The notes: generated from the letters alone by a model not told the origin. DNA of 61,678 nt, filler included, from Anaerolineae bacterium (GCA_029262755.1; 3 parts of 3 records of this genome joined end to end with filler, not necessarily neighbours in it); one strand, 5' to 3'. Positions 5,366 through 26,406 are shown, counted from the first letter of the whole stretch. Numbers and translations: made by a program.

Positions 5366-5368
5366 GCC

Positions 5369-5980: not shown

Positions 5981-6011
5981 GCATGCGCAACGAGGCGGCA
6001 GGGCCAACCCC

Positions 6012-6040: not shown

Positions 6041-6132
6041 CCCGCCCCGCGCGGGGTGAATCAGCTCCTCGCGGTCGAACGTTCCAGCAACCACGACGCG
6101 CAACGAACTCGCGCGTGCCCAACGGTGAGACC

Positions 6133-6783
6133 ATGGCGAACGCGGTCCAGACCACGCACCTGATCGATCATCCGAGCGAGCATTACGTTCGGGACCTCGC
6201 CACGGCGGTCGAAGGCGCGCTGTGGAATCACGACCCCATCCGGCAGTCGCATACGATGCTCAACATCGAATCGGCGGACGGTGTCGTCACCATGGCGGGC
6301 AACATCCGCGGTCACATGTTGCGCTCGATCGCCGAGCACATCGCCCGCGGCGTACCGGGCGTGGTGCGCGTGATCAACCAGCTCGTCTCCGACAACCAGA
6401 TCGAGAGCGACGCCTCGATTGCGGTGGCCATGGATCCCGAGGTCGATGTGACCACGGACCGCATCGCGATCAAGAGCTATCTGGGCATGGTCCATCTCTC
6501 CGGCTTTGTCGCCGACGAAGTTCTCGCGACCGCCGAGGCCAAGGTGGCCCGCATCACGGAGCTCATCCAGGCGGTGCCCGGCGTGCGTGAGGTGGCCAGC
6601 CATCTGCACGCGGTCGAGGGCTCCGGCGACGACGGCTACGTGGTCGAGGCCGTCGAGGACGAGGTGGCCGAACAGGTCGTCGGCGCTCGCGCGATGGGCA
6701 CGTTGCTCAGCGAGGCCAAGCGCGACAAGGCCCGCGCCATGCTCAAGGCCCGCGAGGCCACTCGCGCCGCGGCCGCCGGCTAA
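6133..6783 (+). CDS. Double BON-domain protein (OsmY-like, no signal peptide)
   Basis: Two repeats of the type GVVTMAG...IARGVPGVVRVINQL and GMVHLSG...IQAVPGVREVASHL. Confidence 0.8.
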   Translation: MANAVQTTHLIDHPSEHYVRDLATAVEGALWNHDPIRQSHTMLNIESADGVVTMAGNIRGHMLRSIAEHIARGVPGVVRVINQLVSDNQIESDASIAVAMDPEVDVTTDRIAIKSYLGMVHLSGFVADEVLATAEAKVARITELIQAVPGVREVASHLHAVEGSGDDGYVVEAVEDEVAEQVVGARAMGTLLSEAKRDKARAMLKAREATRAAAAG

Positions 6784-7574: not shown

Positions 7575-10553
7575 CTACGGAACCTGCGGCGCTCCGCCCG
7601 GTGCGCCTGGGAAGCCCGGCGGCGGGCTTGCGCCGTCGCTCAGCAAGCTCATCATCGCGCTTTGGATCTGGTCGGCCGATTCCTGGTCCGTTGCGCGGCT
7701 GAGCGCACCGCCCAGGACCTCGACGGCCTTGTCGCTCTGGTTGTTGTCGAGGTAGAGCAGGCCGAGGTTGTAGAGCACCTTCCAGTCGACGTTCTGGCCG
7801 AGGTTGCTGACGGCCTGCTCGTAGAAGGAGATCGCCGTGTCCATATCGCCCTGTTGGCGTGCCAGATCGGCGCGTTGTAGGAGCGAACCGGGGTCTTGGT
7901 CGCCGCCGCCCAGTTCCGTGGCGCGCACGACGGCGGCCTCGGATTCGGCGGTGCGGCCGGCCATCTCGTAGGCGCGGGCCAGCAGCTGCCAGGTCTGCGC
8001 GTTCTCGCCGTCGAGCAGGTCGCGGGAGAACTCGAGGAGCTGGATCGCCTCGTTCGACTTGCCCTGGAGCAGGCGGGCGAGCGCTAGCTCGTTGGCCACC
8101 TGCGGCTCGAAGTTGAGCGTGACGAAGGCCGCGGCCAGGGTGATCTCCGCCTGGCTCGCCAGCCCGGAGGGGTCGCCGGCGCCCGTGGCGGCCAGGCGTT
8201 CGGCCACCAGCAGCTGCAGGTGGCCGCGGTTGAAGGTGTGGTAGGCGTTCTCGGGGTTGAGCGCCTCGGCCTCCTGCAGCAGATCCTGCGCCCGCTCGTA
8301 GACGCCGAGCGCCTGGGTGACATCCGGGATCAGCTGCGCCTGCTCGGTGTGGAATTCCGCCCAGCGCAGGTAGTAGCCGTCGTCGCGTGGCTGCATCGCG
8401 ATCGCTACGTCGAACTCGGCCACCGCGCGCTCATAGGCCGCGCTATCGCCCTGCGTGGAAGCCTGTGCCCAGTTTAGGACCGCACGTTGGTATGCGATAT
8501 CGCCGCGCACCGGGTTGATGGCCAGCACCACGATTGCCGCCACCGCGCCGATGGCCGGTAACAGATATCCGATGACTTGCGGACCCGCCGCCGGCGGAGC
8601 GCCGATCTCCGCCGCCGGCGCGAGCAACCAACCCGCGAGCAGCACGAGCACGAGCATCCACAGGACGGTGGCCGCGTAGAGCGCGCCGGCTTCGGGCGAA
8701 ACCGCGAGGACGATCGCGCGCAGCACGCTGTAGAGCGCGGGCACCGCGAGCGCCACGACGGTCGTGCCGAACACGCCGCGGCGCGCGTCCGCGGCGGCCA
8801 GCGCCGCGACAGCCGCGACGCCGATGAGCAAGAGGACGAGGATCGCGCTCGTGTCGCGCAGCCGCGGCACGCTGAAGAGCCATAGGCTGTAGAGCACACC
8901 GCTTGCCGCAAGGCCGAGCACGATGCCGAGGCCCGCGCCGCGCCGGTCGAGGACGAGTGCGGAACCGCCGCCTTCGGCGCCTGCTTCCGCCGCGTCCTTG
9001 CGCCGGGTGCGCGCCCGCGCGGTGGTCGATGCCACGGCGGCGGGCTTGCGCTCGCCGAGCGCGCGCGCCAGCAACAGGCCGGCCAAGATCCAGATCACCG
9101 TCTCGGTGACGACCGTGCGGATGCCGAAGGCGCCCTCGGCCACCATCGCCGTGCCCGCGCCGAGCATCGCCAGCGCGAGCGGGTCGATCTCGACCGGTTC
9201 CGCGGCGCGAGCGAGCGCCGCGATCAAGTACATGCCGAGGCCGGCGAGCATCCCGAGCGCGAGCAGCGCACCGGTCATGCCCGGGCGCCAGAACCAGCCA
9301 AGGCCGCCGAGCACGGTGCCGCCGACGAGCAGGCCGACGAGCATGCGGCGGCTGCCGCGTCCCGGCGCCAGCCCAAGCAGCACGAGCGCCGTATAGAGCC
9401 ACGCGCCCCAGAGGGCCAGCTGGCCAAGCAGGCCCAGCAGGCCCGTCATGGCCAGCGCGTCGAAGGGCACGCTGTGGCTGCGGTCGACCAGGCGATCGGC
9501 CTGGCCCTGGCCCGCGAGGTAGGTGTCACCGTAGGGCAGCAGCGCGTGGCGTAGCGATTCGGGGCCGTGGCCGGTTGCCAGGCGGGCGGGCTCGGCGGCG
9601 GTCAGGCGCGCCACCGCGTCCCACACGCGCAGCCGGACGGCCTGCGAGCCTTCGGTCGTGGCGGAGATCTGCGCGAAGCGACCGAGCACGGGTGCGTCCG
9701 CCAGACCCGTGAGCGGCCCGTCGCGCCAGTTGAGCAAGCCGAGCAGCAACAATCCGCCAAGCGCGAGGCCGAGGATGGCCGCCGCCGTACCGGCCTTGCG
9801 CCGCACGGCCGCCGCGGCAAGCGCCAGCGCGCCCAAGCCGATGACGAGGCCGAGGATCGGACCGCGGCTGGCCGTCAGCCACAGCGCGAGCAGCTGCAAT
9901 GCGAGCACCACGATCCATGAAGATGCGACGATCGTGCGGCCCGCGCGTACCGCCGCTCCTGCACGTACGACGACGATGGGCGCCAGCATCATGAGGTAGG
10001 CGCCGAGAAAGATCGGGTTGGAGAGCGTGCCGAAGACACGGCTGTCCTCCACGCGTCCGGGCACCGCTTCCAGGCCGGCCGCCTGGGTGAGCGCGTAGAG
10101 CGCTACGGGCACGCCGGCAGCTGCGAGCACCGCGATGATGCGGTCGCGGCTGTCGGCCGAACGCCCCACGGCCGCGGCGGCGCCGAAGAGGGCCAGCGCT
10201 GCCATCAGTTGCAGCAACCCCTGTTGGCGTTCCGGCGCACCGTAAAAGGCCAGACCGGGCACGGAGGCCGTGGCCGTGGCCAGCGCGGTCGCGCCGCCGA
10301 GCACCAACGCGGCGACGCCGAGGGGTTGCCGGACGGCACGGCCCACCGAGCGCAGGCTCGCGCCGCCGCCCTCGGCGAGGGCGATCACGCCGAGCGCCGC
10401 CGCCATCGCGCCGAAGGCGATGAGCAACGCGCCCTTGCCCAGCTCGAAGACGCGGAATCCGTAGTAGTTCACGAAGAGCGGGATGGCCGCTGCCGCGAGT
10501 AGCAGCAACGCTTCCATCCCGCCGAAGGCCAGGGCCCTGAGTCTCGTATTCAT
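7575..10553 (-). CDS. O-antigen ligase/O-oligosaccharyltransferase-like (Wzy_C) polytopic membrane protein with C-terminal TPRs
   Basis: Many TM segments; RVFGTLSNPIFLGAYL, TASRG, RLRVW, GHGPE, DRSHS...GLLG motifs; TPR-like helices after about residue 700. Start placed at MNTRLR (10553). Confidence 0.8.
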   Translation of the reverse strand: MNTRLRALAFGGMEALLLLAAAAIPLFVNYYGFRVFELGKGALLIAFGAMAAALGVIALAEGGGASLRSVGRAVRQPLGVAALVLGGATALATATASVPGLAFYGAPERQQGLLQLMAALALFGAAAAVGRSADSRDRIIAVLAAAGVPVALYALTQAAGLEAVPGRVEDSRVFGTLSNPIFLGAYLMMLAPIVVVRAGAAVRAGRTIVASSWIVVLALQLLALWLTASRGPILGLVIGLGALALAAAAVRRKAGTAAAILGLALGGLLLLGLLNWRDGPLTGLADAPVLGRFAQISATTEGSQAVRLRVWDAVARLTAAEPARLATGHGPESLRHALLPYGDTYLAGQGQADRLVDRSHSVPFDALAMTGLLGLLGQLALWGAWLYTALVLLGLAPGRGSRRMLVGLLVGGTVLGGLGWFWRPGMTGALLALGMLAGLGMYLIAALARAAEPVEIDPLALAMLGAGTAMVAEGAFGIRTVVTETVIWILAGLLLARALGERKPAAVASTTARARTRRKDAAEAGAEGGGSALVLDRRGAGLGIVLGLAASGVLYSLWLFSVPRLRDTSAILVLLLIGVAAVAALAAADARRGVFGTTVVALAVPALYSVLRAIVLAVSPEAGALYAATVLWMLVLVLLAGWLLAPAAEIGAPPAAGPQVIGYLLPAIGAVAAIVVLAINPVRGDIAYQRAVLNWAQASTQGDSAAYERAVAEFDVAIAMQPRDDGYYLRWAEFHTEQAQLIPDVTQALGVYERAQDLLQEAEALNPENAYHTFNRGHLQLLVAERLAATGAGDPSGLASQAEITLAAAFVTLNFEPQVANELALARLLQGKSNEAIQLLEFSRDLLDGENAQTWQLLARAYEMAGRTAESEAAVVRATELGGGDQDPGSLLQRADLARQQGDMDTAISFYEQAVSNLGQNVDWKVLYNLGLLYLDNNQSDKAVEVLGGALSRATDQESADQIQSAMMSLLSDGASPPPGFPGAPGGAPQVP

Positions 10554-11080: not shown

Positions 11081-14000
11081 TTACACGCCTTCGACGACCA
11101 GGCGCAGCCCGTCATCGCTCATGCGCCGGTCGGGATGGTTGCTCACGCGGAACGTGGCCGTGGTCAGGGTCGCGTCGCTGTTCCACGAGCCGCCGCGGAC
11201 TACGCGCCGCATTTCGGGGCCGGTATCCAGCATCTCACGACCGTCGTCGGAGCGGTACGGGTATAGGTAGCCTTCCTGATCCTCGTCGCGACCGAAGGCC
11301 GTCGAAGTCCACTCGAAGACGTTGCCGGCAAGGTCGGACACGCCCTCGGGCGTCTCGCCTTCGGGAAAGACGCCGATGGGCGTCGTCGTGCGCACGTGCG
11401 TTTCAACCGAGTTGCCGCGGAGCGGGTCGAAGATCTCCCCATAGGGGTAGAGACGGCCCGTCAGGCCGCGAGCGGCCGCTTCCCACTCCACCTCGCTCGG
11501 CAGGCGCACGTGCAGGCCCGTCTGCGCCGATAGCCAGCGGCAGTATGCGCGCGCTTCGTACCAACAGATTCCGACCACCGGCTGCGATGGATGGCTGAGC
11601 CGCCGATTGCGCCAGAAGGCCGGCTCGACGAGCCGCCCGCCGGGAAAGGTTTCACGCAACGAGCGCTCGAAGTCCGCTTCGTCCATCGCAAGCCAGCGCC
11701 GCCATTGGGCGCCGCGCTCTTCGCTCCACGTGCCGGCTGCCCGGAAATGCTCGACGAGCTCCGGCTCCGTGCGGAAGCGCTCGCGCCAATGACGCACGCC
11801 GGCGCGGATGCCCGCGGCCGTGCCCTTGCCCCGCCGCCAATCCGCCGCGGCCTCGCCTTCCCACCACTGCGCGTCCTCATAGCCGCCCGACTCGAGGAAG
11901 CAGCCCCACTCCGCGTTGGTCACGGGGAAGCGGGCGATGCGAAACGCCGGCAGCGTCACGAGGTGGCTTGGACCGTGATCGAAGCTTCGCCCGGCCCACA
12001 GGAAGGTCTGGTCGGTGCCGATCGGGTAAGTGCCCGCTGGAATCGCCACCCACGGCGGTAACAGGCTCCGACCGTCGGGCCCATCGATCGCGCCCAAGCG
12101 CGGGTCGCCCAACGCGCCGACGACGCGTCCCGCGTCGATTCGCGAGCGTAGGTCCGCCGCGGGGTCCGTCGAGCGCGCGACGATCTCGTCCCGCAGCCGT
12201 TCGACGAATGCCGGGCGCAAGCGCGCGCGCACCTCGCCCCGCGCGGCGCAGCGTCCGGCCAACGTCAGGTGGCGCTGCGCGACGGCCGAAACGAAGACCT
12301 CCGGCTCAGCCGCCATGGCCGCCGCAAGGATCGTCGTTTCGCGCCAGCCGCTGTCGCGCGGGCGGGGCAGCGGGTCCGCGGTGTCCAACCCGGCGAGCAG
12401 CTCGGCGAGCGGCGGCTCCATGTCCTCAGCGCGCCACGGCCGTTGCAGGAAGTCCAGGCCGCTACGAGGCAAGGCCGCCAGCTTGCGCGCCGCGAAGTAA
12501 GCCTGCAGCAGATGGTGGAAAAACTGAACCTCGTCGGCTGCCGGATCTTCCTCGAGCACGTTGAGATCGACCCCCGCGTGAAGGATCTCCTCGGCGTGGG
12601 GATGGTCGACAAACGCGGTTGCAACTTCATGTCGTGCACGTAGCTTCGCGTGCTCGCCCATGCTGGACCGGGCCTGGAGCGCGAAGGCCAACGCGGATAG
12701 CCCGGGAATGAGCGGTCCTCGCTCCGGCAAGCCCCAGGGGTCGGGCCAATGTGTCGCCTGCACGATCCGCAGGTGATCGCGTTCGCTGAGCAGCAACCCG
12801 GCCGCGAACAGCGGGTTGCCGGCCTCGACCTCGCGCCGCAGCGTGCGTCGGATAAAGGCGGTAAACAGGGCGGCCTGGCCGCGCGGGATCTCGCCGCGCG
12901 CCGCCACTTCCGCGATCAACATCGTGAGCACGTGCGGCGAGCGGAGCATGCCCAGATGCGGCGTACCCTCCAGATTGCGCCATAGGTAGCCCGCCAAGCC
13001 GGGACTATATGCCCGCAGGAAGCGCTGGATCTGCGCGTCGCTCATCGGCTCGATTCGAACCTGCGGCACCCGCAGCTCGGGCGTGGAAAGCGGCTGCCCG
13101 TAGTCGAGCGTCCGGCACGTGATCACCACCTGGTTACCGGGCCGCGGCGCGACCTCGGTCTGCAGGAAATGGCGCCACCGATCGATCCGCCGCCGGTAGT
13201 CCACGCCGTCCGCATGCGGCATTTCGTTCAATCCGTCCAACAGCAGCAGCGCCCGTCCCTCCTCGAGCAAGGAGGGCAACGAGGGTAGGTGGGGATGGCG
13301 ACGCGACCATTCGGTGGCGAGCCATTCCGCGACCTCGGGCGGCTCCGCGCCGGGCGTGCGAAATGTATTGAGCGCTACGTGAAACGTGACCGGCCCCGTC
13401 TCGCCGTCTTCGCCCTGCAGCGCGGCCACCGCCGCGTCCATTTCCAGGCGGCGCAGCAAGGTGCTCTTGCCCGAGCCGGGCGGGCCGATCACGATCAACG
13501 CCGGACCATCCGATTCCGCCAGCACCTCGCGTAGATCGGCGTGCCGCGCGGCGCGCGGCGCCCACCGTCCGGCGACCGCTTCCTCGCCCTGGTCGACCAT
13601 CAACGTCAGCTCCACGAAGCGGTCGTCGAGCTCGTAGCGCGGCTCGTTCCAACGCGCGATGCGCCCGAGCCGGTGCTCGCGCAGAGTCCGCGCGTCATGC
13701 CGCGCAAGCGCCGCGAGTTCCGCGGGGCTGAGCGCGACCGTGGTCGACGAGTCGAGCACCGCTGCCTCCAACGCGTCGAAGAGCGCCTCAACGGTGCGGG
13801 GCGCCACGTCCTCTGGATCGACGCCGACAATGTGCCGCACGCCGATCCGCCGCCGTAGCTCGCGCTGTGAGAGCGCGGCCGGCGCCGTGTCGATGTCGGG
13901 CAGGTCCGGATCGACGGCCTGGTAGAGGTGCTCGCCCTCATCCAAGCCCTTGAGCCATTGCGGCCCGTGATCGCGCAAGCCCACGCCCCAACGCGCCGCG

Positions 14001-14449
14001 GCATCGCCCACGTCTTCGATCGTAGCCAGGGACAGCAGCACCTGGCCGCCGTGCGCCGCGCCCGCAATGCGGGCGGCGCGGTTCACATCGAGCCCGACGT
14101 AGCCTTCCGCCGTGCGGGTGGGCGTGCCCGCGTGCAACCCCATCCGCACGAGCACCTCGCCCCCGTCCGGCCAGTCCTCGGCCGCCAACGCCCGTTGCGC
14201 ATCCAGGGCCGCGCGCAGCGCCGCTTCCGCGGTGCGAAAGACGTAGAAGAACGCGTCACCCTGCGTATCGACCTCGAACCCGTCCTGCGCGACAAACGCC
14301 GCGCGCAGCAGATCGCGATGACGCTCTTGCAACGCGGCATATCGATCAGCGAAGCGCTTGACCAGCTCGGTCGAGCCCTCGATGTCGGTAAACAGCAACG
14401 TGAGCCGGCCCTCGGGCAGGCGGCGCTCGGAGGTCGTGGGCAGGCGCAT
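11081..14449 (-). CDS. Class III nucleotide cyclase - NACHT/STAND NTPase - FGE-sulfatase (SUMF1/C-lectin fold) protein
   Basis: Cyclase LFTDIEGST/TQGDAF/VNRAARI; Walker A GPPGSGKST, Walker B LLLLDGLNE, ITCR; FGE motifs FPVTNAEW, PVVGICWYEA, RLPSEVEWE, DLAGNVFEW, RGGSW. Confidence 0.9.
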   Translation of the reverse strand: MRLPTTSERRLPEGRLTLLFTDIEGSTELVKRFADRYAALQERHRDLLRAAFVAQDGFEVDTQGDAFFYVFRTAEAALRAALDAQRALAAEDWPDGGEVLVRMGLHAGTPTRTAEGYVGLDVNRAARIAGAAHGGQVLLSLATIEDVGDAAARWGVGLRDHGPQWLKGLDEGEHLYQAVDPDLPDIDTAPAALSQRELRRRIGVRHIVGVDPEDVAPRTVEALFDALEAAVLDSSTTVALSPAELAALARHDARTLREHRLGRIARWNEPRYELDDRFVELTLMVDQGEEAVAGRWAPRAARHADLREVLAESDGPALIVIGPPGSGKSTLLRRLEMDAAVAALQGEDGETGPVTFHVALNTFRTPGAEPPEVAEWLATEWSRRHPHLPSLPSLLEEGRALLLLDGLNEMPHADGVDYRRRIDRWRHFLQTEVAPRPGNQVVITCRTLDYGQPLSTPELRVPQVRIEPMSDAQIQRFLRAYSPGLAGYLWRNLEGTPHLGMLRSPHVLTMLIAEVAARGEIPRGQAALFTAFIRRTLRREVEAGNPLFAAGLLLSERDHLRIVQATHWPDPWGLPERGPLIPGLSALAFALQARSSMGEHAKLRARHEVATAFVDHPHAEEILHAGVDLNVLEEDPAADEVQFFHHLLQAYFAARKLAALPRSGLDFLQRPWRAEDMEPPLAELLAGLDTADPLPRPRDSGWRETTILAAAMAAEPEVFVSAVAQRHLTLAGRCAARGEVRARLRPAFVERLRDEIVARSTDPAADLRSRIDAGRVVGALGDPRLGAIDGPDGRSLLPPWVAIPAGTYPIGTDQTFLWAGRSFDHGPSHLVTLPAFRIARFPVTNAEWGCFLESGGYEDAQWWEGEAAADWRRGKGTAAGIRAGVRHWRERFRTEPELVEHFRAAGTWSEERGAQWRRWLAMDEADFERSLRETFPGGRLVEPAFWRNRRLSHPSQPVVGICWYEARAYCRWLSAQTGLHVRLPSEVEWEAAARGLTGRLYPYGEIFDPLRGNSVETHVRTTTPIGVFPEGETPEGVSDLAGNVFEWTSTAFGRDEDQEGYLYPYRSDDGREMLDTGPEMRRVVRGGSWNSDATLTTATFRVSNHPDRRMSDDGLRLVVEGV

Positions 14450-14620
14450 CGGCTTCCTCGGGCTCTCCCGCCCGCGTGTCGGGAGGAGGGGTCAGCCCGA
14501 AGTATAAACGGCTCCACGGCCGCCGCCGCCTCTGGACGGTATGGCGGCCGTCGGACCCATGAGGACGCCAACAATCCACGCCAACGGACACGTCGGCGTA
14601 GCTCGCGGCACGATTCCTCG

Positions 14621-15112
14621 CTACCCCGTGCTCGCGGGCGCCTCGCCGCTCCCCCCGCTGCTTGCCTCGCCGCTTTGCCCCAAGGCGGGATGGCCGATCG
14701 TCGCCGCCCATGCGAGCACGCCGACCAGCGCCAGGATGCCCGGCGCGAGCAGCGGGTTTGCGCCGAACAGGGCGTTCCAGGCCCGCGCCATGCCTTCGAT
14801 CTGCGGCTTGACCTCAGCCTCGATAGCCAGGTTGCCGCTCATGTGTTGCGCCATGCCGACCACGCTGCCGGCCACCAACAGCGGCATCGTCCACTGTAGG
14901 GCGCGCACGCTGGTGGGCCCGGGTCGACGCACAAGCCAACCGATCATCCCCAGCGCGAGCGACGCGAGCACGAAGGGCGTCCATTGCAGGACGCCCTCCG
15001 TATGCTCGGTCAGCACGAGTTCGACGATGGTGCCGGCAGCGCAAGCCGCGGCCGCGCCGAGCAAGACCGTGCGCAAGCGCGTCTCGACGCTGCGCGGCGA
15101 TGCTACGGTCAC
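14621..15112 (-). CDS. Hypothetical 4-TM membrane protein
   Basis: Four hydrophobic segments; ELVLTEH and HMSGN motifs; 4-nt overlap with the upstream gene. Confidence 0.75.
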   Translation of the reverse strand: MTVASPRSVETRLRTVLLGAAAACAAGTIVELVLTEHTEGVLQWTPFVLASLALGMIGWLVRRPGPTSVRALQWTMPLLVAGSVVGMAQHMSGNLAIEAEVKPQIEGMARAWNALFGANPLLAPGILALVGVLAWAATIGHPALGQSGEASSGGSGEAPASTG

Positions 15113-15801
15113 GGGGCGGCGAGGTAGCCGGCGGCCACGGCGGTGTCCACGTCGGGCGCCTGCTGGGCGAGCGCCGCGAGGAGCGCATCGGCGTTCGCGT
15201 AGGGCACGCCGGCAGCGATCGCGTCGGCTGCGGCCTGGTCGAGCCCTGGAATCTGCATGAACGTGTCGGCGTCGGCGGTAGCCGGATCGATCGGCACGAA
15301 CAGGTACTGCAGATACTCGGCTACCTGCGCCTCGTCGACATACTTGCCGATCTCGCGCCGGAACTGCCCGATCGTGGCGTAGGGCCGATACTCGTCGAAC
15401 TCACGCGCCATGCGCTCACCCGAGTTGGGTACGGTCAGGAAGTCGTCGCGCGACGCAGTGTTGAGATTGATCAATACAGGCTTCGCCGTTGTTTCGGCCG
15501 GGGTCGTGTTGGATTCGGAATCGCTTTCGTCCGCGGCGGCGTCGGCCTCAGCAGCGTCGGCCTCAGCGTCGGCCTCAGCGGCGGCGTTCTCGGCGTCCGC
15601 GTTCGTAGCGGCATCGGAATCCGCGTTGGTCGCGGGATTGGCTGCGGCGTCGGCTGCGCCGTCGTTTGTTTCCACGACGGCCGCGGGCGCTTCGTCGACG
15701 ACCGGATCGGCGTCCGCGTCGGCGCATGCGCCGAGCGCGAACGGCAGCAGCAAGGCGCTTAGCAGCAAGGTCAGGTGGGTGCTGTGTGGCTTGCGGTTCA
15801 C
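15109..15801 (-). CDS. Lipoprotein with Ala/Asp-rich linker and tandem ComEA-like helix-hairpin-helix domains
   Basis: Lipobox ALGAC; INLNTASRDDFLTVP...EYRPY...FRREIGKY and IDPATADADTFMQIPGL; SD AGGAG before the GTG. Confidence 0.8.
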   Translation of the reverse strand: MNRKPHSTHLTLLLSALLLPFALGACADADADPVVDEAPAAVVETNDGAADAAANPATNADSDAATNADAENAAAEADAEADAAEADAAADESDSESNTTPAETTAKPVLINLNTASRDDFLTVPNSGERMAREFDEYRPYATIGQFRREIGKYVDEAQVAEYLQYLFVPIDPATADADTFMQIPGLDQAAADAIAAGVPYANADALLAALAQQAPDVDTAVAAGYLAAP

Positions 15802-15986
15802 GTAGGACTCCTGCGTGTGTGGGGGACGGTCGCGCCGATGGACACGCGCGAGCCATCGCTGCATGGACGGGAATACTCTGCGCCGTGCGCGCGCGAATCC
15901 CGTGATGCAGGTGTAAAAAAGGTGGGTTGTTCGGTCGGGCCGAATCGGTGACCGGAGGGCGGAAGCGGTCGGCTACGAACGTCTCG

Positions 15987-16886
15987 CTAGCGGTTGCCTT
16001 CCTCCTTGACCGGCAAGGACTTGAGATAGGTCCACAACGACCGCATTTCCCCTGCGTTCATCGTGCCGAATTGCGCATACGGCATCACGGGATCGAGCTT
16101 CGTGCCGTCCGGGCGCGTGCCCGTACGCAACGCGGTCACGAAGTCGCCCTCGGTCCACGTCCCGAGCCCCGTCTCTTCGTCGGGCGTGAGGTTGGCGGCC
16201 GGCGGCCAGTCCGGCGGCACGCCTGGTATTCGCCCGCCGCTCAAGCCGGGCCCGTGGCAACCGGTGCAGGTCGCGGCCAGGTACTCGCCATACGCGAGCG
16301 CATCGGACGGATCGGGCGCCTTTTCAATGGGCGCTTCGTGATCGACAACGTCGGCAGCCAGCCGCATCTCACCCACGACCAGCATCACGCGACCCAGCGG
16401 CCCGATGCCGGAAGGCGGACTCTCGCGATCCACCGGCGGTACGGACTCGAGGTAGACGATCAGGTTCCCGAGATCGTCGGCGTCCATGACCGTGAACTCT
16501 TCCGAAGGCATCAACTGGAGCGGTCGCCCGCCCCGGCTCAGGCCATGGCGGATCGCGCGCACCCAATCGGTGGTGGTGTAGTCCGCGACGACCGAGCCTT
16601 CGCCGGAGGTCAGGTTTGGCGCATGCACGGGGCCGATCATCGGATCGTCGATCACGGTCTCGCCGCCGAAGTCCGCGCCGTGGCATCCAGAGCAGGCGCG
16701 GATGACCGCGAGGTGCTCGCCGCGTGCCAAGGCAGCCTCGTCGGATGCGGACGGGAGTTCGATTTCGGCCACGTCGACGTCGATGGTCCTCCCCAGTTTT
16801 CGCTGGGATTCAAAGTAAACGCCTGTGCCAACGACCAACACGATTACCAGCAAAGCGCCCAGCAAGCGCGGCAAGATGCGCATCAT
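15987..16886 (-). CDS. Membrane-anchored diheme cytochrome c
   Basis: Two CxxCH motifs (CSGCH, CTGCH), APNLT/AANLTP motifs, LMPS/VMPY axial Met, N-terminal TM. Confidence 0.9.
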   Translation of the reverse strand: MMRILPRLLGALLVIVLVVGTGVYFESQRKLGRTIDVDVAEIELPSASDEAALARGEHLAVIRACSGCHGADFGGETVIDDPMIGPVHAPNLTSGEGSVVADYTTTDWVRAIRHGLSRGGRPLQLMPSEEFTVMDADDLGNLIVYLESVPPVDRESPPSGIGPLGRVMLVVGEMRLAADVVDHEAPIEKAPDPSDALAYGEYLAATCTGCHGPGLSGGRIPGVPPDWPPAANLTPDEETGLGTWTEGDFVTALRTGTRPDGTKLDPVMPYAQFGTMNAGEMRSLWTYLKSLPVKEEGNR

Positions 16887-16983
16887 CGCTCGTCCCCTTC
16901 CTGTACGGAGACCGCTATACGGTCGCGAGGGCGCTAGATTGGACCCAAGTGGCGACGCGTGCAAGGTGGTGGCGGGGGGTGGA

Positions 16984-17526
16984 TCAGCCGCTCGGACCCG
17001 CTCCCCAGCGCACATCGCTCATCCGCCCGATGAACTCCGGCAGGGCGGGGTGTCCCAACTGCTGGCGGATCATGTGCGCCTCGCCCGTGTGATACCAGTA
17101 GTGCCAGATGTTGCGCAGCAGCATCGTGCCGATGTCGTCGCGCATCCGGCCGTCCTCCAACGTGAACCGGGTGGCGGCGACGGCGTCGTCGATCGTGTCC
17201 AGATACGGATCGGCCGCCTCGGCGACCGCGCGCCACACACCCAGGGCCTCCTCGTAGTCCGGCGTGCTCGGCGGTGCCCCAAACCCGAAGCGCTTGCCGA
17301 GCCCGTCGACCACCGCCCGCCCTTGGGCGACGTCGACCCAGAACCACTGCTCTTGCGTGGCCAAATGCATGACGATCCACGACAAGCAGTTCGACGTCCC
17401 GAGCCGCTTCGTCGCATCCTCGGCAGTGACACCGTCGAGGCAACGTGCCATCTCGCTGCGCGCGAAACGTAGCTGGGTGACGAGGGGGTGGGGGGACGCG
17501 GCAGGCCCTGCGAGAGAAGATGGCAT
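16984..17526 (-). CDS. DinB/DUF664-family protein
   Basis: NCLSWIVMHLATQE ... HYWYHTGE His triad. Confidence 0.8.
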   Translation of the reverse strand: MPSSLAGPAASPHPLVTQLRFARSEMARCLDGVTAEDATKRLGTSNCLSWIVMHLATQEQWFWVDVAQGRAVVDGLGKRFGFGAPPSTPDYEEALGVWRAVAEAADPYLDTIDDAVAATRFTLEDGRMRDDIGTMLLRNIWHYWYHTGEAHMIRQQLGHPALPEFIGRMSDVRWGAGPSG

Positions 17527-17559
17527 GACTCAGGCTCCTAGGTGGGCGGATGCCGAAGC

Positions 17560-17922
17560 CTAGCGGAGCCACCACCAAGCGACCATGGCCAGGGACATGG
17601 TGGTCATAAGCACCCATCCGTGATCGATCGTCTCGCCCAGCGATTCTTCGCCGCGCTTCCGGCCAGGCCGCTCCTTGCGGTCTAGAACACCGAGGACCAG
17701 GCCGGCCGCGATCCACGCAGCGAGGATGGGCGCCATGAAGACAGGAGGCACACGTTCAAGATACGCATCGAGTAGCAAGAATCCTGTGGCTACGATGATC
17801 GTCAGCGCGGCGACCTGGGGTCGAAAGTGCCACCAAAGCGCTCTCCATCGTTTTGTCGCCATCAGGAAGATGCCCAAAAGCAACCATCCGACCCATATCG
17901 CATTCGACGGTGTCGACCACAC
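17560..17922 (-). CDS. Hypothetical small membrane protein
   Basis: Hydrophobic C-terminal part of ORF 17560..19218; GTG preceded by GAGGAG. Confidence 0.6.
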   Translation of the reverse strand: MWSTPSNAIWVGWLLLGIFLMATKRWRALWWHFRPQVAALTIIVATGFLLLDAYLERVPPVFMAPILAAWIAAGLVLGVLDRKERPGRKRGEESLGETIDHGWVLMTTMSLAMVAWWWLR

Positions 17923-18011
17923 ATCGATCTCCTCGCCCCGTAGCGCTCCCGGCGTCCGGTGGCGACGGATGAACCGTGAATCGTTCTTGGCCTTCGACCG
18001 TCGCGCAGACC

Positions 18012-19082
18012 CTACGCTCGTAGCAACCCGTGGTTCAGCCCGACCGCCAGTGCGAACACGGCCACGCCCATGCCCTGATGCACGAGTGCCACCGGCAACG
18101 CGACGCCGGTCATCACCGTCGCCACGCCGAGCGCGATCTGTACGCCGACGAGCAGCGCGAGGCCGCCGGACGCCGCGCGAACGCCGCGCAGCCTGCCGTC
18201 GCGCCGCAGCGTCCACCATAGCGCGACCGCTGCCATCAAGACGGCCCACGCCAGCCAGCGATGGACGAAGTGCACGGTCTCCGGCGCGCTCACCAGGTTG
18301 CGCCACGCCGGCTCGTAGCGCGCCAGCATCCCGCTCGGGACGAGCCGCCCGAACATCAGCGGCCACGTATTGGACAGCTGCCCGGCCCGCAAGCCCGCGA
18401 CGAACGCACCATAGGTGATCTGCGCGAGAACGAGGAGCATCAGCACACCGCCCAGCACGCGTGGCCCGCCCAACGCGGCATGGCGCGGCCCCGTGCGGGG
18501 CCCGTCGCGCAAGCCAAGCGCCGTCCACAGCGCAAGGGCGAGCAGCGCCAGCGCGGCCATCAGGTGGGCGGCGAGCCGCAGGTGGCTCACCGCGGGCTGA
18601 TCGACCAACCCACTCGCGACCATGTACCAGCCGAGAAAGCCCTGGAACCCGAACAACGCAGCGATGGCCAGAAACGGCGCCGAACGACGCCACGGAATGA
18701 CCCCCCGCAGGAGGAACCACGCCAGCGGCAGCACGACGAACAAGCCCGCCAGCCGTGCAGCAAACCGGTGGAACCACTCGATCATGTAGATCCGCTGATA
18801 GCCCGCGAGGCTCATGTCCGCGTTGACGGTCCGCCCTTCGGGACTCTGCTTGTAGGCCGCAAAGGCCTCCTGCCACGCCCCATCGCCGAGCGGCGGCACG
18901 ACCCCCGTGACCACCTCCCACTCCACGATCGACAGCCCCGAGCGCGACAGCCGCACAAAGCCGCCGACGAGCACGAGTCCCGCGACGATCGCCGCGACCG
19001 CGTACAACCAGCGGCGCACGAGGGCGGGCCGCGTGATCCCGTGCGTGGGGCGCGCGGAGTGGGCAGCGCTGGAGATCGACAT
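18012..19082 (-). CDS. ctaA: Heme A synthase (COX15/CtaA)
   Basis: GGFVRLSRSGLSIVEW, EWFHR, QGFLGWYMVASGL, HLRLAAHL, HFVHR, HQG. Confidence 0.93.
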   Translation of the reverse strand: MSISSAAHSARPTHGITRPALVRRWLYAVAAIVAGLVLVGGFVRLSRSGLSIVEWEVVTGVVPPLGDGAWQEAFAAYKQSPEGRTVNADMSLAGYQRIYMIEWFHRFAARLAGLFVVLPLAWFLLRGVIPWRRSAPFLAIAALFGFQGFLGWYMVASGLVDQPAVSHLRLAAHLMAALALLALALWTALGLRDGPRTGPRHAALGGPRVLGGVLMLLVLAQITYGAFVAGLRAGQLSNTWPLMFGRLVPSGMLARYEPAWRNLVSAPETVHFVHRWLAWAVLMAAVALWWTLRRDGRLRGVRAASGGLALLVGVQIALGVATVMTGVALPVALVHQGMGVAVFALAVGLNHGLLRA

Positions 19083-19341
19083 GGCCGTTGATTCTGGCGA
19101 CGGGGGGCGGGTCGGTCAACGGGGGATGGGCGGGAGGCAGGTCCAGATCGGGTGCGGTGGGGTGAGTACGGCTGGGCGGGTGGGGTACAGCGTCTGCGCG
19201 GCCGCCCCGTGAGCGCAAGAGCGTCCCCTATGCAGTTGGGATTCGTCCTTCTTCTTGCGGCCGGGGCATCGTGCCTTCGTTGGCTGCGTTATCGTCTTGG
19301 ATCAGGGACGTAGCGAACCGCGTTCCGGGGAGGCACATGCG

Positions 19342-21537
<2,196 letters not shown>

Positions 21538-21574
21538 CGCATGACGGGTGCCGGGGTTACAATTGCCCGCGTAC

Positions 21575-21647
21575 GCCCCCGTAGCTCAGGGGATAGAGCA
21601 ACGGTTTCCTAAACCGTGTGTCGTAGGTTCGAGTCCTACCGGGGGTA
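21575..21647 (+). tRNA. tRNA-Arg(CCT), CCA not encoded
   Basis: Acceptor GCCCCCG/CGGGGGT, D arm GCTC..GAGC, anticodon stem ACGGT/ACCGT with loop TTCCTAA, T arm GTAGG-TTCGAGT-CCTAC. Confidence 0.97.
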
Positions 21648-21653
21648 CACGTG

Positions 21654-21878
21654 ATGACCCATCCCACATCGTTTGCGGTCTGCATCCGTAATGACGGCTA
21701 TCCGGCTGCGCTCGAGGTGCGAAAGCATTATCGCGTTCTCCCTGATGCAGATGCTGGAGATGCCGGGTTGATCCGGGTCATCGACGAATCGGGGGAGGAC
21801 TATCTCTACCCCACCGAGTTCTTCGTGTCGATCGAGTTACCCCGTACGATCACGGACGTGCTGGAGTCGGCCGCCTAG
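21654..21878 (+). CDS. Conserved small hypothetical protein (RVIDESGEDYLYP family)
   Basis: CIRNDGYPAALEVRKHYRVLPD...IRVIDESGEDYLYP, recognised as a widespread roughly 75-aa family. Confidence 0.75.
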   Translation: MTHPTSFAVCIRNDGYPAALEVRKHYRVLPDADAGDAGLIRVIDESGEDYLYPTEFFVSIELPRTITDVLESAA

Positions 21879-21908
21879 CGTGTTGACGGTCATGGCATCC
21901 TACAGCCT

Positions 21909-24900
21909 GTGACTCGCGCCTTCATCAGCTACGCTCACGCCGACGCCGCCTTCGCCACGCGCCTCGCCACCGCGTTGCCGGGGCTGGGCATCGATCCGTG
22001 GATCGACCGCGACGGGATTCACGGCGGCGCACGCTGGAGTTCGTCCATTCAGCAAGCATTGGACGACGCCGACGCGCTGATCCTCGTACTGACCCCGGCC
22101 GCCATGGCCTCGTCCAACGTCGAGGACGAGTGGCAGTACGCGCTCGATCGGGGCAAGCCCGTGCTGCCGGTGCTGCTGGAGCCGACCGACGTCCACTTCC
22201 AGCTCGGACGCATCCAGTACACCGACTTCCATGGCCAGCCCTTCGAAGCCGGGCTCGCGCAGCTGGCGGAGGGCGTGCGGCGAGCGTTGGAGGGCGTGCG
22301 CGCTGACAACGCAGCGAGCGGGGAGGCCGGGCAGGCTGGCGCGGCAGAAGAACACCGCACACGCGCCGGCCTTAGCGCCGCCCGCTCCATCGGCCCGCCT
22401 TCCGGCACCGTCACCTTCCTCTTCACTGACATCGAGGGCAGCACCGTGCGCTGGGAGCAGCATCCCGACGCCATGGGCGCCGCGCTCGAGCGCCACGACG
22501 CCTTGATGCGCGCCGCCGTAGCCGACCATGCCGGCCACGTTTTCAAGACCGTCGGCGATGCGTTCTGCGCCGTCTTCGCCCGTGCCGGTGACGCGCTCGC
22601 CGCCGCGATCGCCGCTCAGCGCGCCGTCGCGGCCCTTGACTGGTCGGCCATGGGCGACGGCTTCCCGCCCCTGGCGGTGCGCATGGCCATCCACACCGGC
22701 GAGGCAACCGAGCGCGACGGCGACTACTTCGGGCCGCCCGTCAACCGCGTGGCGCGGCTGGAGGCCGCCGGCCACGGCGGGCAGCTCCTGCTCTCGGCGC
22801 CGACCTATCACATCGTGCGCGACGCGCTCCCCGAAAGCTTCGCACTCCGCGACTGGGGAGAGCATCGGCTCAAGGACCTGCGCCACAGCGAGCATGTCTT
22901 CCAGGTGGAGGGGCCGGGCCTGCCGACCGTCGAGACCCCACCCAAGACAGCCGAGGCGCTCCACCCGCGGGACCGCGTGTACGTGGTCGACGTGGAGGCG
23001 GACGGTGATCCGGAGGCCCTGGCTTCGGCGGAGTCGGACAGCGGGCCACGTGCCGATCCCGACAGCCCGTGGTCGCGTCTTGAGGCCGCCGTCACCGCCG
23101 ACGCCGGCGAAGCGGTTACCCTGACGCCCGCAGAGGCCACGCAACTCGCCCGCCACAAGCCGATCGATTGGCGCGAGTACCGCCTGGGCCGCATCGCGGA
23201 GTGGAGCCAACCACGCTTCCGGCTCGACGGCCGCTTCGTCGGCCTGACCCTGCTCATCGACCAGGGCGAGGAGTCGGTCGCCGGACGCTGGGCGGCCAAC
23301 GAGGAGCGCTACGAGGACCTTGGCGCGCTGCTGGCGGAGACGAACGAGCCGGCCATCGTCGTTCTCGGTCCACCCGGCGGCGGCAAGTCCACGCTGCTGC
23401 GACGGCTCGAGCTGGACGCGGCCATCGCGGGTCTGCGCGGCGAGAGCGAGGTAGACTCACAAGGCCGTGTCACCTTCTTCATCTCGCTCAATACCTACAA
23501 GCCGGACGAGCCGAGCCAACCTGTACCTTCACCAACTACGTGGCTCTCCGAACGCTGGGCGGCTCGCTCACCCGAGCTCCGTCCCCTCGACACCCTCCTC
23601 GCCGAAGGCCGCGTCACCCTCCTGCTCGACGCGCTCAACGAGATGCCCGCCGCCTCGGAGTCGGACTTCCACGACCGGGTGCGCCTGTGGAAGGACTGGC
23701 TCGTGCGGCTCGTCCACGACCAGCCGGGCAACCGGGTCGTCTTCTCCTGCCGCTCGCTCGACTACAGCCAGCCGCTCTCGACGGCGGATCTCCGCGTGCC
23801 TCAGGTGCGCATCGAGAACCTGACCGACGACCAGGTCCGCGACTTCCTCGCGCTCTACAGCCCCGGACGCTGGCGCGAGATCTGGGCGGCGCTGGAGGGC
23901 AGTCCGCAGCTGGAGGTCCTGCGCAGCCCCTACTTCCTGGCGCTGCTCGTCGAGCAGGTCGAGGCCACGGGCGAGATGCCCACCGGCCGCGCGGCGCTCT
24001 TCACGGGCTTTGTGCGCCAAGCGCTGCGGCGCGAGATCGAGCGCGGCAACACGCTTTTCGAGCCGGGACCGCTACTGGCCGGCCGCGATCTCAAGCGCGT
24101 CGCCGGCTGGAAGTGGAAGACACCCTACGACCTGCCCGAGCGCGGCAGCCTGATCCCGAAGATGGCGACCCTCGCCCACGCGATGCAGACGGATCGGGCC
24201 GACGGCGAAGGCTCGTTGGTGCGCATCGACGTCGACGACGCGCTCGACCTCCTCGACGACCCCAACGACGAGGCGCTGCTGGCGGCCGGTGCGGCGATGG
24301 CGGTGCTGGACGAGGACCAGGCGGCCGAAGAGTTGATGTACATCCACCAGCTCGTGCAGGAGTACTTCGCGGCTCGGCAGCTGGCGCGGGAGCCGGATCC
24401 GGAGCTTGTTCGGACCGAGTGGCGGGCTTCGGAGATGCGCCCGAGCCTCGATGAAGTGATCGACCGTCTCGACACGGCCGATCCGCTGCCGGCTCTGCCC
24501 GGCACCGGCTGGGAGGAGACGGCGATCTTCGCTGCGGCGATGTCGGAGGACCCGACAGGCTTCTTGCGCAGTGTCATGGAGACGAATCTCGCGCTCGCCG
24601 GCCGTGCCGCCGCGCAGCCGGAGCTGCAGCCGCGCCTGCCGGACGACCTTCTCGACGAGCTGCGGTGGGCGCTCGCGGCGCGCAGCCGCGACACGTCCGC
24701 CGATCTACGCGACCGGATCGCTTGCGGTTATGCCCTCGGCGACCTGGGCGACCCACGCTTTGAGCGCCGCGTCGGTCCGCATGGCGCGTACCTACTCCCC
24801 CCGCTCGTCGTGATTCCCGCGGGGACGTACCCCATCGGGGATGACAAGCCGATCGTGAACCCCCACGGCACATGGACCGGACATGTACCGCGCCACGAGA

Positions 24901-25811
24901 TCGAGATCGCGGCCTTCGAGATCGGTCGGTTCCCCGTCACCAACGCGGAGTGGTCTTGCTTCCTGGACGCCGGCGGCTACGAGGACGACCGCTGGTGGGA
25001 TACCCAAGACGCACGTTCTTGGCGCCGCGGCGAGAACACGGCCGCGGGAATTCATGCCGGTGTGAAGGACTTCGTCGCTCGCTGTCGCGCGCACCCCGCG
25101 CTGATCGACGAGCTGCTGGCCGCCGGCTCGTGGGACGAGACCACGTACGAGCGCGGACAGCGCCGACTGGCCATGAGCGAAGCCGAGCTGGACGCCCACC
25201 TGCGCGAGCTATACCCAGGCGGGCGCCTGACCGAGCCGGCCTTTTGGCGCGATCGCCGCCTCAACCATCCGTCGCAGCCGGTGGTCGGCGTGTGCTGGTT
25301 CGAAGCGCGCGCCTACCTGCGCTGGCTCGCCGCGCAGTCAGGTCTGCCCTTCCGGTTGCCGTCCGAGGTTGAGTGGGAGTCCGCGGCACGGGGTGCGGCC
25401 GGCCGCCTCTACGCCTATGGCGACGAGTTCAACCATCTGGCGTGCAACGCCGCCGAGACACACATCCGGCAGACCACGCCGATTGGTGTCTTTCCGGACG
25501 GCGATTCACCGGAGGCGGTCACCGACCTCACCGGCAACGTCTTCGACTGGACATCGAGCGCCTTCGGGCAGAATACCGATTCGACCGAATACCCGTACCC
25601 CTACCTTCCCAGTGACGGTCGGGAGGAGCCGGACCTGCCTGCGACGTGCCTGCGCGTGTTGCGTGGTGGCTCGTGGTATGACGATCGATCGTGCACCCTG
25701 GCTGCCTACCGGGTCAGCGATCTACCCGATGATCGCGATCCTGACAGCGGCTTTCGGGTATGCGTTCGCCGCAGCGCCTCACCCCCGTCCTCCCCGGATC
25801 CTGCGTCCTGA
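21909..25811 (+). CDS. TIR - class III adenylate cyclase - NACHT/STAND NTPase - FGE-sulfatase protein
   Basis: TIR AFISYAHAD...SSNVEDEW; cyclase FLFTDIEGST/FKTVGDAF/DYFGPPVNRVARLE; Walker A GPPGGGKST, Walker B LLLDALNE, FSCR; FGE motifs through RGGSW...GFRV. Confidence 0.92.
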   Translation: MTRAFISYAHADAAFATRLATALPGLGIDPWIDRDGIHGGARWSSSIQQALDDADALILVLTPAAMASSNVEDEWQYALDRGKPVLPVLLEPTDVHFQLGRIQYTDFHGQPFEAGLAQLAEGVRRALEGVRADNAASGEAGQAGAAEEHRTRAGLSAARSIGPPSGTVTFLFTDIEGSTVRWEQHPDAMGAALERHDALMRAAVADHAGHVFKTVGDAFCAVFARAGDALAAAIAAQRAVAALDWSAMGDGFPPLAVRMAIHTGEATERDGDYFGPPVNRVARLEAAGHGGQLLLSAPTYHIVRDALPESFALRDWGEHRLKDLRHSEHVFQVEGPGLPTVETPPKTAEALHPRDRVYVVDVEADGDPEALASAESDSGPRADPDSPWSRLEAAVTADAGEAVTLTPAEATQLARHKPIDWREYRLGRIAEWSQPRFRLDGRFVGLTLLIDQGEESVAGRWAANEERYEDLGALLAETNEPAIVVLGPPGGGKSTLLRRLELDAAIAGLRGESEVDSQGRVTFFISLNTYKPDEPSQPVPSPTTWLSERWAARSPELRPLDTLLAEGRVTLLLDALNEMPAASESDFHDRVRLWKDWLVRLVHDQPGNRVVFSCRSLDYSQPLSTADLRVPQVRIENLTDDQVRDFLALYSPGRWREIWAALEGSPQLEVLRSPYFLALLVEQVEATGEMPTGRAALFTGFVRQALRREIERGNTLFEPGPLLAGRDLKRVAGWKWKTPYDLPERGSLIPKMATLAHAMQTDRADGEGSLVRIDVDDALDLLDDPNDEALLAAGAAMAVLDEDQAAEELMYIHQLVQEYFAARQLAREPDPELVRTEWRASEMRPSLDEVIDRLDTADPLPALPGTGWEETAIFAAAMSEDPTGFLRSVMETNLALAGRAAAQPELQPRLPDDLLDELRWALAARSRDTSADLRDRIACGYALGDLGDPRFERRVGPHGAYLLPPLVVIPAGTYPIGDDKPIVNPHGTWTGHVPRHEIEIAAFEIGRFPVTNAEWSCFLDAGGYEDDRWWDTQDARSWRRGENTAAGIHAGVKDFVARCRAHPALIDELLAAGSWDETTYERGQRRLAMSEAELDAHLRELYPGGRLTEPAFWRDRRLNHPSQPVVGVCWFEARAYLRWLAAQSGLPFRLPSEVEWESAARGAAGRLYAYGDEFNHLACNAAETHIRQTTPIGVFPDGDSPEAVTDLTGNVFDWTSSAFGQNTDSTEYPYPYLPSDGREEPDLPATCLRVLRGGSWYDDRSCTLAAYRVSDLPDDRDPDSGFRVCVRRSASPPSSPDPAS

Positions 25812-26306: not shown

Positions 26307-26406
26307 NNNNNNNNNNNNNNNNNNNNNNNNNNNNNNNNNNNNNNNNNNNNTTAATTAATTAANNNNNNNNNNNNNNNNNNNNNNNNNNNNNNNNNNNNNN
26401 NNNNNN
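26307..26406. other. Artificial contig-join spacer
   Basis: 100 nt of N with a central TTAATTAATTAA six-frame stop linker. Confidence 0.98.

Follow-up and report, generated by a model that had tools for sequence, protein, structure and literature searches.

A 61,678-nucleotide stretch of DNA from an Anaerolineae bacterium (GCA_029262755.1), which as a whole we call the window, carries two genes whose products, P0001 and P0002, join a nucleotide cyclase to an NTPase of the NACHT family and to a C-terminal domain with the fold shared by formylglycine-generating enzyme (FGE) and C-type lectins. The question raised by this locus is what such composite proteins would sense, what signal they would send and to what end. 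[quoted passage not shown] Our best reading of their function, which on balance we judge probable, is that of a ligand-gated NLR-like switch: clustering would start the synthesis of a cyclic nucleoside monophosphate (cNMP), together with NAD+ cleavage in P0002, with the products acting in trans and most likely in defence or conflict.

The genome assembly comprises 5.06 Mb in 428 contigs and is 84% complete. Bases 1-26306 of the window are one whole contig, C218, which carries both receptor genes. N spacers at window positions 26307-26406 and 42467-42566, with paired 44-base N runs, represent contig joins; the window is therefore discontinuous, and genes past 26306 are not neighbours of the receptor genes.

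Domain organisation and cyclase residues of the two receptors

P0001 and P0002 share 566 of 1131 residues by BLASTP (50% identity), and their alignment is collinear over everything from the cyclase through the whole FGE domain. Both open reading frames (ORFs) have a coding-type G+C content at third codon positions (0.84-0.85), and the GTG start codon of P0002 agrees with the N-termini of its homologues. Pfam recognised Guanylate_cyc (residues 15-145, E 4.8e-6), NACHT and FGE-sulfatase (in two stretches) in P0001, and TIR_2 (96.8 bits), Guanylate_cyc, NACHT (E 1.5e-9) and FGE-sulfatase in P0002, the remaining limits and E values being given in Table 1; TIR_2 matched the N-terminus of P0002 only and not P0001. 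An earlier reading made from the sequence by itself (the sequence-only reading) had described two paralogues with this shared domain order at these positions, and the ORFs, Pfam matches and BLASTP identity all agree with it.

P0001 was modelled with AlphaFold2 from 61 homologues (pLDDT 88.7, pTM 0.75), and parts of the model matched the cyclase Ma1120 (TM 0.91-0.93, rmsd ~2 Å), NOD2 and NLRC4, and the FGE-fold proteins ToxD, EgtB, FGE and pFGE. Both proteins have the tripartite layout of N-terminal effector, NTPase and C-terminal sensor. Their NACHT domains scored 56.3 and 38.3 bits against a Pfam cut-off of 26.7, and across a family alignment of 129 sequences (121 proteins and eight ORFs from this genome) every sequence had the Walker A Lys and 127 had the Walker B Asp. 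The STAND logic that had been assigned to the pair from sequence is judged correct. The conserved linker it had noted was likewise borne out: the least variable block of the family lies at P0002 residues 426-450 (0.45 bits), and the pre-NACHT linker of P0001 has the invariant residues L261, R263, A265, W267, D275, R277, F278, V279, L283, D286, G288 and E289. By analogy with the P0001 model, the helical region that follows the NACHT domain in P0002 may consist of a winged helix and helical repeats.

The motif VEDEW occupies positions 71-75 of P0002. When the PDB was searched with a TIR profile, residue E74 aligned with the Glu of 7uxr and with that of the AbTIR motif WTNYEL, which we take to be the catalytic residue of AbTIR; together with the TIR_2 match this upholds the call of an N-terminal TIR domain with a catalytic-type Glu. 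The domain has the fold and the conserved Glu of TIR NADases, and NADase activity is predicted for it. The invariance of NVEDEWQY in the TIR alignment is by construction, because the motif itself served as the search pattern; the search for related loci that it steered returned mainly TIR proteins of other architectures.

The sequence-only reading had drawn no distinction between the two cyclases, and here it needs correction, as they are not equivalent. P0002 holds the full adenylyl-cyclase set (D174, K213, D217, D272, N279 and R283), and its cyclase aligns to Ma1120 (4wp3; E 1.2e-19), an active adenylyl cyclase and its closest solved relative. P0001 retains the metal-binding Asp residues D22 and D65 and the transition-state residues N123 and R127, four of the six catalytic positions, with D61 and G116 instead of Lys and Asp as the substrate pair. 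Passages of PMC4215837 give K/D as the substrate residues of adenylyl cyclases and Glu plus C, S, T, H, A or G as those of guanylyl cyclases, with E-G in the bacterial guanylyl cyclase Cya2, and name K101E/D157G as the Ma1120 mutant with the best guanylyl cyclase activity. From these rules and the residue pairs of the two proteins, the product of P0002 is predicted to be cAMP; P0001 is probably not an adenylyl cyclase like P0002, and its product is predicted to differ from cAMP, being perhaps cGMP or another nucleotide.

The set D-K-D-D-N-R was found in all but 18 of the 129 aligned sequences, six of the 18 departing from it through gaps or truncation only. At the substrate pair, six proteins besides P0001 have D, A or E combined with G. 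In a FastTree phylogeny of residues 400-1249 (123 tips, midpoint root), built without the cyclase part, D/G-type cyclases occupy at least three separate places, from which it follows that the substrate-pair switch recurred; on the same grounds a single old subfamily of D/G-type cyclases was rejected.

Predicted sensor tip, family distribution and exchangeable heads

We read the FGE domain of these proteins as a binding domain and not as an enzyme, and its last ~30 residues are predicted, from sequence comparison, to be the ligand-contact tip. Sequence matches of the P0002 domain in the PDB were ToxD, EgtB, OvsA, FGE, PvdO and PorK, with residue-level alignments to ToxD, EgtB and OvsA. FGE itself has a catalytic Cys pair; no invariant or near-invariant Cys was found in the last 40 residues, a part that is hypermutated in relatives. 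The P0001 domain carries a helical insertion at about residues 866-934 in the AlphaFold2 model. The most variable blocks of the family, in P0002 numbering, were the cyclase-to-NACHT linker (351-400), the FGE helical insertion (1051-1100) and the FGE C-terminus (1251-1300), with residues 1251-1275 among the highest-entropy blocks (2.24 bits). Pfam found no DinB domain, which holds the iron site of EgtB-type enzymes, in either protein. In databases homologues go under the name 'SUMF1/EgtB/PvdO family nonheme iron enzyme', which reflects the C-terminal domain alone and is corrected here; the JGI label is formylglycine-generating enzyme/class 3 adenylate cyclase.

The proposal, made from sequence, that sensing resides in the FGE tip is directly supported by diversity-generating retroelements in relatives. 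Template/variable repeat pairs with adenine-specific mismatches were found at three of the four relatives' loci that have an adjacent reverse transcriptase (genomes G307, G311 and G308), and they target the last ~30 FGE codons. In G307 the reverse transcriptase lies directly downstream of a TIR-cyclase-NACHT-FGE gene which is itself the target: past the enzyme's gene lies a 115-nt repeat that corresponds to the final ~31 codons of the target, with 16 of 17 substitutions at template adenines of the sense strand. One template is paired with two variable repeats in both G311 (17 of 19 substitutions at adenines in the NACHT-FGE gene and 16 of 19 in a second FGE gene) and G308 (16 of 17 in the NACHT-FGE gene and 14 of 17 in the second target), such second targets being shorter FGE genes. 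At the fourth locus, in G312, no repeat pair was found beside the reverse transcriptase. Nine of the other 16 genomes in the bacterial family have homologues of the G307 enzyme (E <= 1e-20). Because the retroelement rewrites these codons in relatives, it singles out the FGE tip as the place where the ligand binds, and in those relatives the tip is a hypermutated binding site.

When 5.8 billion proteins were searched, 2432 of the 8000 candidates scored matched at E <= 0.001. Among the best 120 of these, Guanylate_cyc was found in 116 and FGE-sulfatase in 119, and the named sources were Caldilineae, Anaerolineae, Ardenticatenales/Ardenticatenia and unclassified Chloroflexi assemblies. When the NACHT-helical core (P0002 residues 400-960) was used as query at E <= 1e-40, all 17 genomes of one Chloroflexota family carried copies (16 of 16 besides the present genome), with 1-21 copies each and about 165 core matches in total; three sister families of the order had none (0/6, 0/10 and 0/1 genomes) and a fourth gave one weak match (3e-43). 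An even sample of the phylum, with at most four candidates scored per genome, yielded matches in two of 301 genomes, the present one and one other from the same bacterial family. The expansion is thus confined to one Chloroflexota family among the genomes searched. Copies are often arrayed in tandem: G310:C4 has four in a span of 20 kb, and G314:C325 has three. The present genome has 13 matches to the core, and so at least 13 copies or fragments. It has seven full-length cyclase-NACHT-FGE genes, three of them with TIR, besides contig-end fragments, and one more TIR copy, the fourth, is truncated by the end of its contig. The locus L131 (G303:C4, 1560-7655) encodes a family member of 2032 amino acids, the first ~1140 residues of which match no Pfam family.

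Head domains behave as exchangeable modules on a constant chassis. A search with P0002 residues 1-345 also found the same cyclase subtype (60-70% identity) on NB-ARC/TPR and nSTAND1/WD40 chassis, and TIR and cyclase occurred together in only nine of its best 120 matches, four of which are from this genome; TIR-cyclase stacking is present in P0002 and at least eight other protein clusters. In one of these four, on contig C255, the TIR-cyclase pair sits on an NB-ARC/TPR chassis. That contig holds a cluster of three very large genes (G000:C255:1678-15720; L013 and L014), including a 1725-aa ORF, a TIR-cyclase-NB-ARC/AAA-TPR gene (1362-aa frame) and a NACHT-family fragment that runs off the contig end. 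For 31 long family ORFs from relatives, which were chosen for frames of ~1200 aa or more and, being picked for length, are not a fair sample, the heads were TCAD9 (nine), cyclase (seven), BTAD (four), cyclase with TCAD9 (two), TIR with cyclase (one) and none recognisable (eight). In five of the seven cyclase-headed ORFs the cyclase lies behind an unassigned N-terminal extension of 130-170 aa. The TIR subtype of P0002 is joined straight to an FGE domain, without an NTPase, at all six loci tested in other Chloroflexota. These short TIR-FGE proteins (L026, L033, L036, L043, L053 and L059, from 7001 onward) include two with bacterial TSP3 repeats between the domains.

A proposed switch and its rivals

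In the mechanism that we propose, the FGE/C-type-lectin-fold domain would bind a ligand through a variable contact surface made up of its last ~30 residues and the helical insertion, and binding would free the NACHT NTPase for nucleotide exchange and oligomerisation. Class III cyclases form head-to-tail dimers with active sites at the interface and are active only as dimers; for this reason clustering of the N-terminal heads would be expected to assemble cyclase dimers and switch on cyclic-nucleotide synthesis. With its adenine-specifying Lys/Asp pair P0002 would make cAMP, and P0001, with an Asp/Gly pair like the Glu/Gly of Cya2, would probably make cGMP or another nucleotide. Clustering of P0002 would also assemble the TIR active site, with NAD+ cleavage or an ADP-ribose-derived signal as the outcome. 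The cyclic nucleotide would then work in trans, its targets being cNMP-binding proteins whose genes lie in other parts of the genome. Such a switch most likely serves to detect invaders, either phage or foreign molecules of another kind, in a bacterium of filamentous, multicellular type whose numerous paralogous sensors would share one messenger. We observe the domain order, the folds, the conservation of catalytic and NTPase residues, the expansion of the family, the exchange of heads and, in relatives, the targeting of the FGE tip by retroelements; we infer ligand gating, oligomerisation, enzyme activation, products, receivers and the defence role.

The sequence-only reading had noted that no cNMP-binding effector is visible in the window, and the gene annotation of the window agrees. 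In the genome as a whole cNMP_binding gave 13 matches in at least 10 proteins, among them cNMP-MscS channel, cNMP-NTE/patatin, cNMP-bPH and CRP types and fusions to NDH2, aldehyde dehydrogenase and methyltransferase. Candidate receivers are a cNMP-NTE/patatin protein (L113, G000:C155), a cNMP-MscS protein (L104, G000:C384) and a cNMP-bacterial PH protein (L114, G000:C236).

A number of observations count against a defence switch of this kind. These cNMP-binding proteins are of ordinary kinds and unlinked to receptor genes, the sole exception lying on C36, ~5 kb from a cyclase-STAND fragment. The window neighbours are housekeeping genes (dnaK, grpE, a sigma-70 factor, flavodoxin, O-antigen-ligase/TPR, cytochrome c, DinB/MST, CtaA, and LVIVD and VWA proteins), without a defence context, and when the neighbours at 19 loci of this genome, those of paralogues and of related STAND genes, were compared all against all by BLAST, no conserved neighbour was found beyond overlapping loci. 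PADLOC gave only domain-level matches in the window and no system: the TIR models of Aga, SAVED-TIR and ThsB, and a weak match of the PycC model to P0002 (E 1.1e-5). In relatives, nine of 97 neighbour ORFs at 40 loci matched PADLOC models (E <= 1e-8), mostly generic methyltransferases and ATPases, a count that is descriptive and has no background sample. BTAD and TCAD9 heads, which look like regulatory outputs, are found in relatives on this NACHT-FGE chassis, and the TIR-bearing paralogue P0007 (G000:C223:7833-11789) has the degenerate cyclase set E-R-D-A-N-R; its cyclase is 55% identical to that of P0002, the remaining domains being 72-80% identical, and may be decaying. In the literature text searched, figures and relevant supplements lying outside the search, no experiment on a cyclase-NACHT-FGE protein was found. 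The suggestion of an immune system, made from sequence, stands as that of a candidate, with its defence role unproven.

The window genes themselves do not qualify as retroelement targets, as the genome as assembled has neither an intact reverse transcriptase nor a template. A search of this 84% complete genome with RVT_1 gave no match, and blastn with the last 330 nt of 11 paralogues returned no template repeat but only paralogue matches of 64-78% identity. The G307 query found a single reverse-transcriptase remnant of 98 aa (49% identity, C-terminal part, stop-broken frame; G000:C425:3475-3768), so C425 looks like the site of a decayed retroelement. An 83-nt repeat shared by C425 and C294 (92% identical) was rejected as a template/variable pair, having no adenine bias. 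In this genome, then, the FGE tip is fixed and diversity arises through gene copies.

Several of the same observations would suit non-immune sensory transducers, an explanation which we consider rather unlikely. The proteins would then serve inside the cell as receptors for ligands of endogenous or environmental origin, for instance envelope fragments, metabolites or inter-cell filament signals, with cAMP or cGMP acting through CRP-type regulators and cNMP-gated proteins, BTAD heads acting on transcription and TCAD9 heads giving phosphorylation-type signalling. Their nearest analogues would be the STAND regulators AfsR and MalT and mycobacterial cyclase-ATPase-TPR proteins. The housekeeping surroundings and the lack of conserved defence neighbours are consistent with this, as are the canonical cAMP-type residues of the cyclases, the CRP-type and ordinary cNMP receivers of the genome and the sharing of the chassis with BTAD and TCAD9 heads, the latter in two cases alongside a cyclase; passages of PMC13581612 moreover place defence and non-defence STAND clades interspersed with one another. 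Set against this are the catalytic-type Glu kept by the TIR heads, the number of paralogues per genome with their tandem arrays, and the published surveys which place FGE-sulfatase (FGS), cyclase and TIR parts in conflict systems. Retroelement hypermutation of the sensor tip in relatives also suits fast-changing ligands better than fixed metabolites.

An immune function might alternatively be exerted by depletion, the clustered cyclase burning ATP (or GTP) and the TIR domain NAD+, so that arrest would be direct, as with NADase effectors, and would need no cNMP receiver; this we think improbable. It would account for the finding that no copy is linked to a cNMP-binding effector and for the stacking of TIR and cyclase, and passages of Kibby et al. 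(10.1101/2022.07.19.500537) list essential-resource depletion as a mode of enzymatic effectors. The cyclase stands alone in most family members, however, and the genome has 13 cNMP-binding domains. The substrate-pair switches, which recur at three or more separate places of the tree with the metal and transition-state residues kept, suggest selection on the nucleotide made, which matters more for a signal than for depletion. Class III cyclases are known, besides, as signal generators.

The ligand-gated switch with a diffusible product, which we prefer to both, can be extended into a more speculative and, as a whole, unlikely proposal: a shared-messenger immune network in which dozens of NLR-like receptors, each with an FGE tip of its own that is hypermutated by a retroelement in some species and germline-fixed here, would feed cyclic nucleotides to unlinked executioners such as cNMP-patatin and cNMP-MscS proteins, K/D copies making cAMP, D/G copies cGMP or another nucleotide, and TIR-cyclase copies two signals. 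If true, this would be a distributed bacterial NLR-to-second-messenger pathway, unlike the operon-encoded Pycsar, CBASS and Thoeris. For tests the family offers clear catalytic residues, natural substrate-pair variants, rare two-enzyme copies and, in relatives, ligand-contact residues marked by retroelements.

The features discussed are collected in Table 1. Two large LVIVD-repeat beta-propeller proteins are encoded at window positions 19255-21537 (+), between the receptor genes, and 53705-56374 (-), and a type I polyketide synthase of 2375 aa (KS, AT, DH, ACP) at 35391-42518 (+) runs into an N spacer.

Table 1. Coordinates of the receptor genes, their domains and the retroelements of relatives (window positions unless a locus is named).
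Feature	Position	Strand	Basis
P0001, cyclase-linker-NACHT-helical-FGE/C-lectin receptor without TIR, 1122 aa	11081..14449	-	ORF, translation, Pfam, AlphaFold2 model, fold matches
P0001 class III cyclase domain, ~aa 15-185	13895..14407	-	Pfam, residue table, model against Ma1120
P0001 conserved pre-NACHT linker, ~aa 256-300	13550..13684	-	Invariant residues; equivalent block least variable
P0001 NACHT NTPase, aa 318-481, Walker A GPPGSGKST	13007..13498	-	Pfam E 4.5e-15; folds NOD2 5irm, NLRC4 4kxf
P0001 FGE-sulfatase/C-type-lectin-fold domain, ~aa 800-1118	11096..12052	-	Pfam E 2.4e-45; ToxD, EgtB, FGE, pFGE folds
P0001 counterpart of the same variable tip as in P0002, ~aa 1083-1114	11108..11203	-	BLASTP offset and P0002 register
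P0002, TIR-cyclase-linker-NACHT-helical-FGE/C-lectin receptor, 1300 aa	21909..25811	+	ORF, translation, Pfam
P0002 TIR domain, aa 5-119; E74 codon 22128-22130	21921..22265	+	Pfam TIR_2 E 1.7e-27, PADLOC, PDB profile search
P0002 class III cyclase domain, aa 165-333	22401..22907	+	Pfam E 1.3e-14, Ma1120 alignment, residue table
P0002 NACHT NTPase, aa 483-645, Walker A K493, Walker B D574	23355..23843	+	Pfam, alignment
P0002 helical region between NACHT and FGE	23844..24788	+	No Pfam family; helices and small sheet, P0001 model 505-780
P0002 FGE-sulfatase/C-type-lectin-fold domain, ~aa 965-1284	24801..25760	+	Pfam E 1.7e-41
P0002 counterpart of relatives' variable repeat, ~aa 1250-1281	25656..25751	+	tblastn register of FGE segment on L156
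G307 retroelement, L156 (G307:C64:15000-25500)	4784-4898, 5287-6369, 6495-6616		
G311 retroelement, L157 (G311:C8)	6232-6365, 6551-6684, 8485-8618		
G308 retroelement, L159 (G308:C12)	1495-1629, 1864-2000, 3836-3971		

Relation to known systems

To our knowledge, characterised bacterial NLR-like proteins kill or arrest the cell through sensor-fused nucleases, proteases, pores and NADases. If an NLR-like receptor were instead to emit a diffusible cyclic nucleotide, sensing would be uncoupled from execution, as in animal and plant immune signalling. The sequence-only reading could name no characterised system with this architecture; the design does figure in published surveys, its parts being covered by Kibby et al., Kaur et al., Dore et al. 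and PMC13581612, none of which reports an experiment on a protein of this kind. Passages of Kibby et al. give bacterial NACHT proteins sensors of an 'antigen receptor-type', the FGS domains, and effectors that include cNMP cyclases and TIR domains. Kaur et al. 2020 (PMC7159879) assign the same three kinds of domain, cNMP cyclase, TIR and FGS, to conflict systems that multicellular bacteria carry, and passages of PMC13581612 include FGE-like sensors among defence STANDs.

The NACHT-FGS proteins of Kibby et al. resemble P0001 and P0002 in having an N-terminal effector (cNMP cyclase and TIR among them), a central NACHT domain and a C-terminal FGS/FGE domain, in being single genes with their own promoters and in being enriched in multicellular bacteria; the members tested there in E. 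coli, however, had other effectors and sensors. No description of TIR and cyclase stacked in one chain was found in that text; the precise architecture may appear in its figure and in Table S1. The STAND-C-lectin sensors diversified by retroelements of Dore et al. 2024 (PMC10907252), stated in passages of that paper to be experimentally uncharacterised, likewise combine a STAND NTPase with a C-terminal C-lectin/FGE domain that ends in a variable repeat, and relatives of the window genes match this exactly; there too an element often has two targets, and filamentous Chloroflexi are among the hosts. The differences are that Dore et al. make no mention of a cyclase (0 occurrences) and that the window genes have no template repeat, with only a reverse-transcriptase remnant in the genome.

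Ma1120 and Cya2 have the fold and catalytic residues in common with the window cyclases, with K/D as the substrate pair of Ma1120 and E-G as that of Cya2, from which P0001 differs in having D/G and not E/G. Those enzymes are stand-alone or otherwise regulated, whereas here the cyclase is the head of an NLR-like receptor. With Pycsar the window genes share a class III-type cyclase proposed as an immune generator of cyclic nucleotides, as well as the weak PycC match of P0002. Pycsar, however, is a two-gene operon with a cNMP-binding effector, a neighbour that the window genes do not have, and their cyclase, which has purine-cyclase-like residues, forms one chain with a STAND sensor of its own. 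Avs/AVAST and other TIR-STAND sensors are similar in their TIR head, STAND NTPase and C-terminal sensor, and the genome also has TIR-NB-ARC-TPR genes. They differ from P0002 in that its NTPase is a NACHT, its sensor has the FGE fold in place of TPR and its NTPase is separated from the TIR by a cyclase; PADLOC gave no Avs match at E <= 0.01.

By comparison with these systems, what is new here is the stacked TIR-cyclase head and the paralogue pair with differing substrate residues, together with the confinement of the receptors, among the genomes searched, to one bacterial family whose genomes hold 1-21 copies each, and the finding that a cyclase-bearing member is linked to a retroelement.

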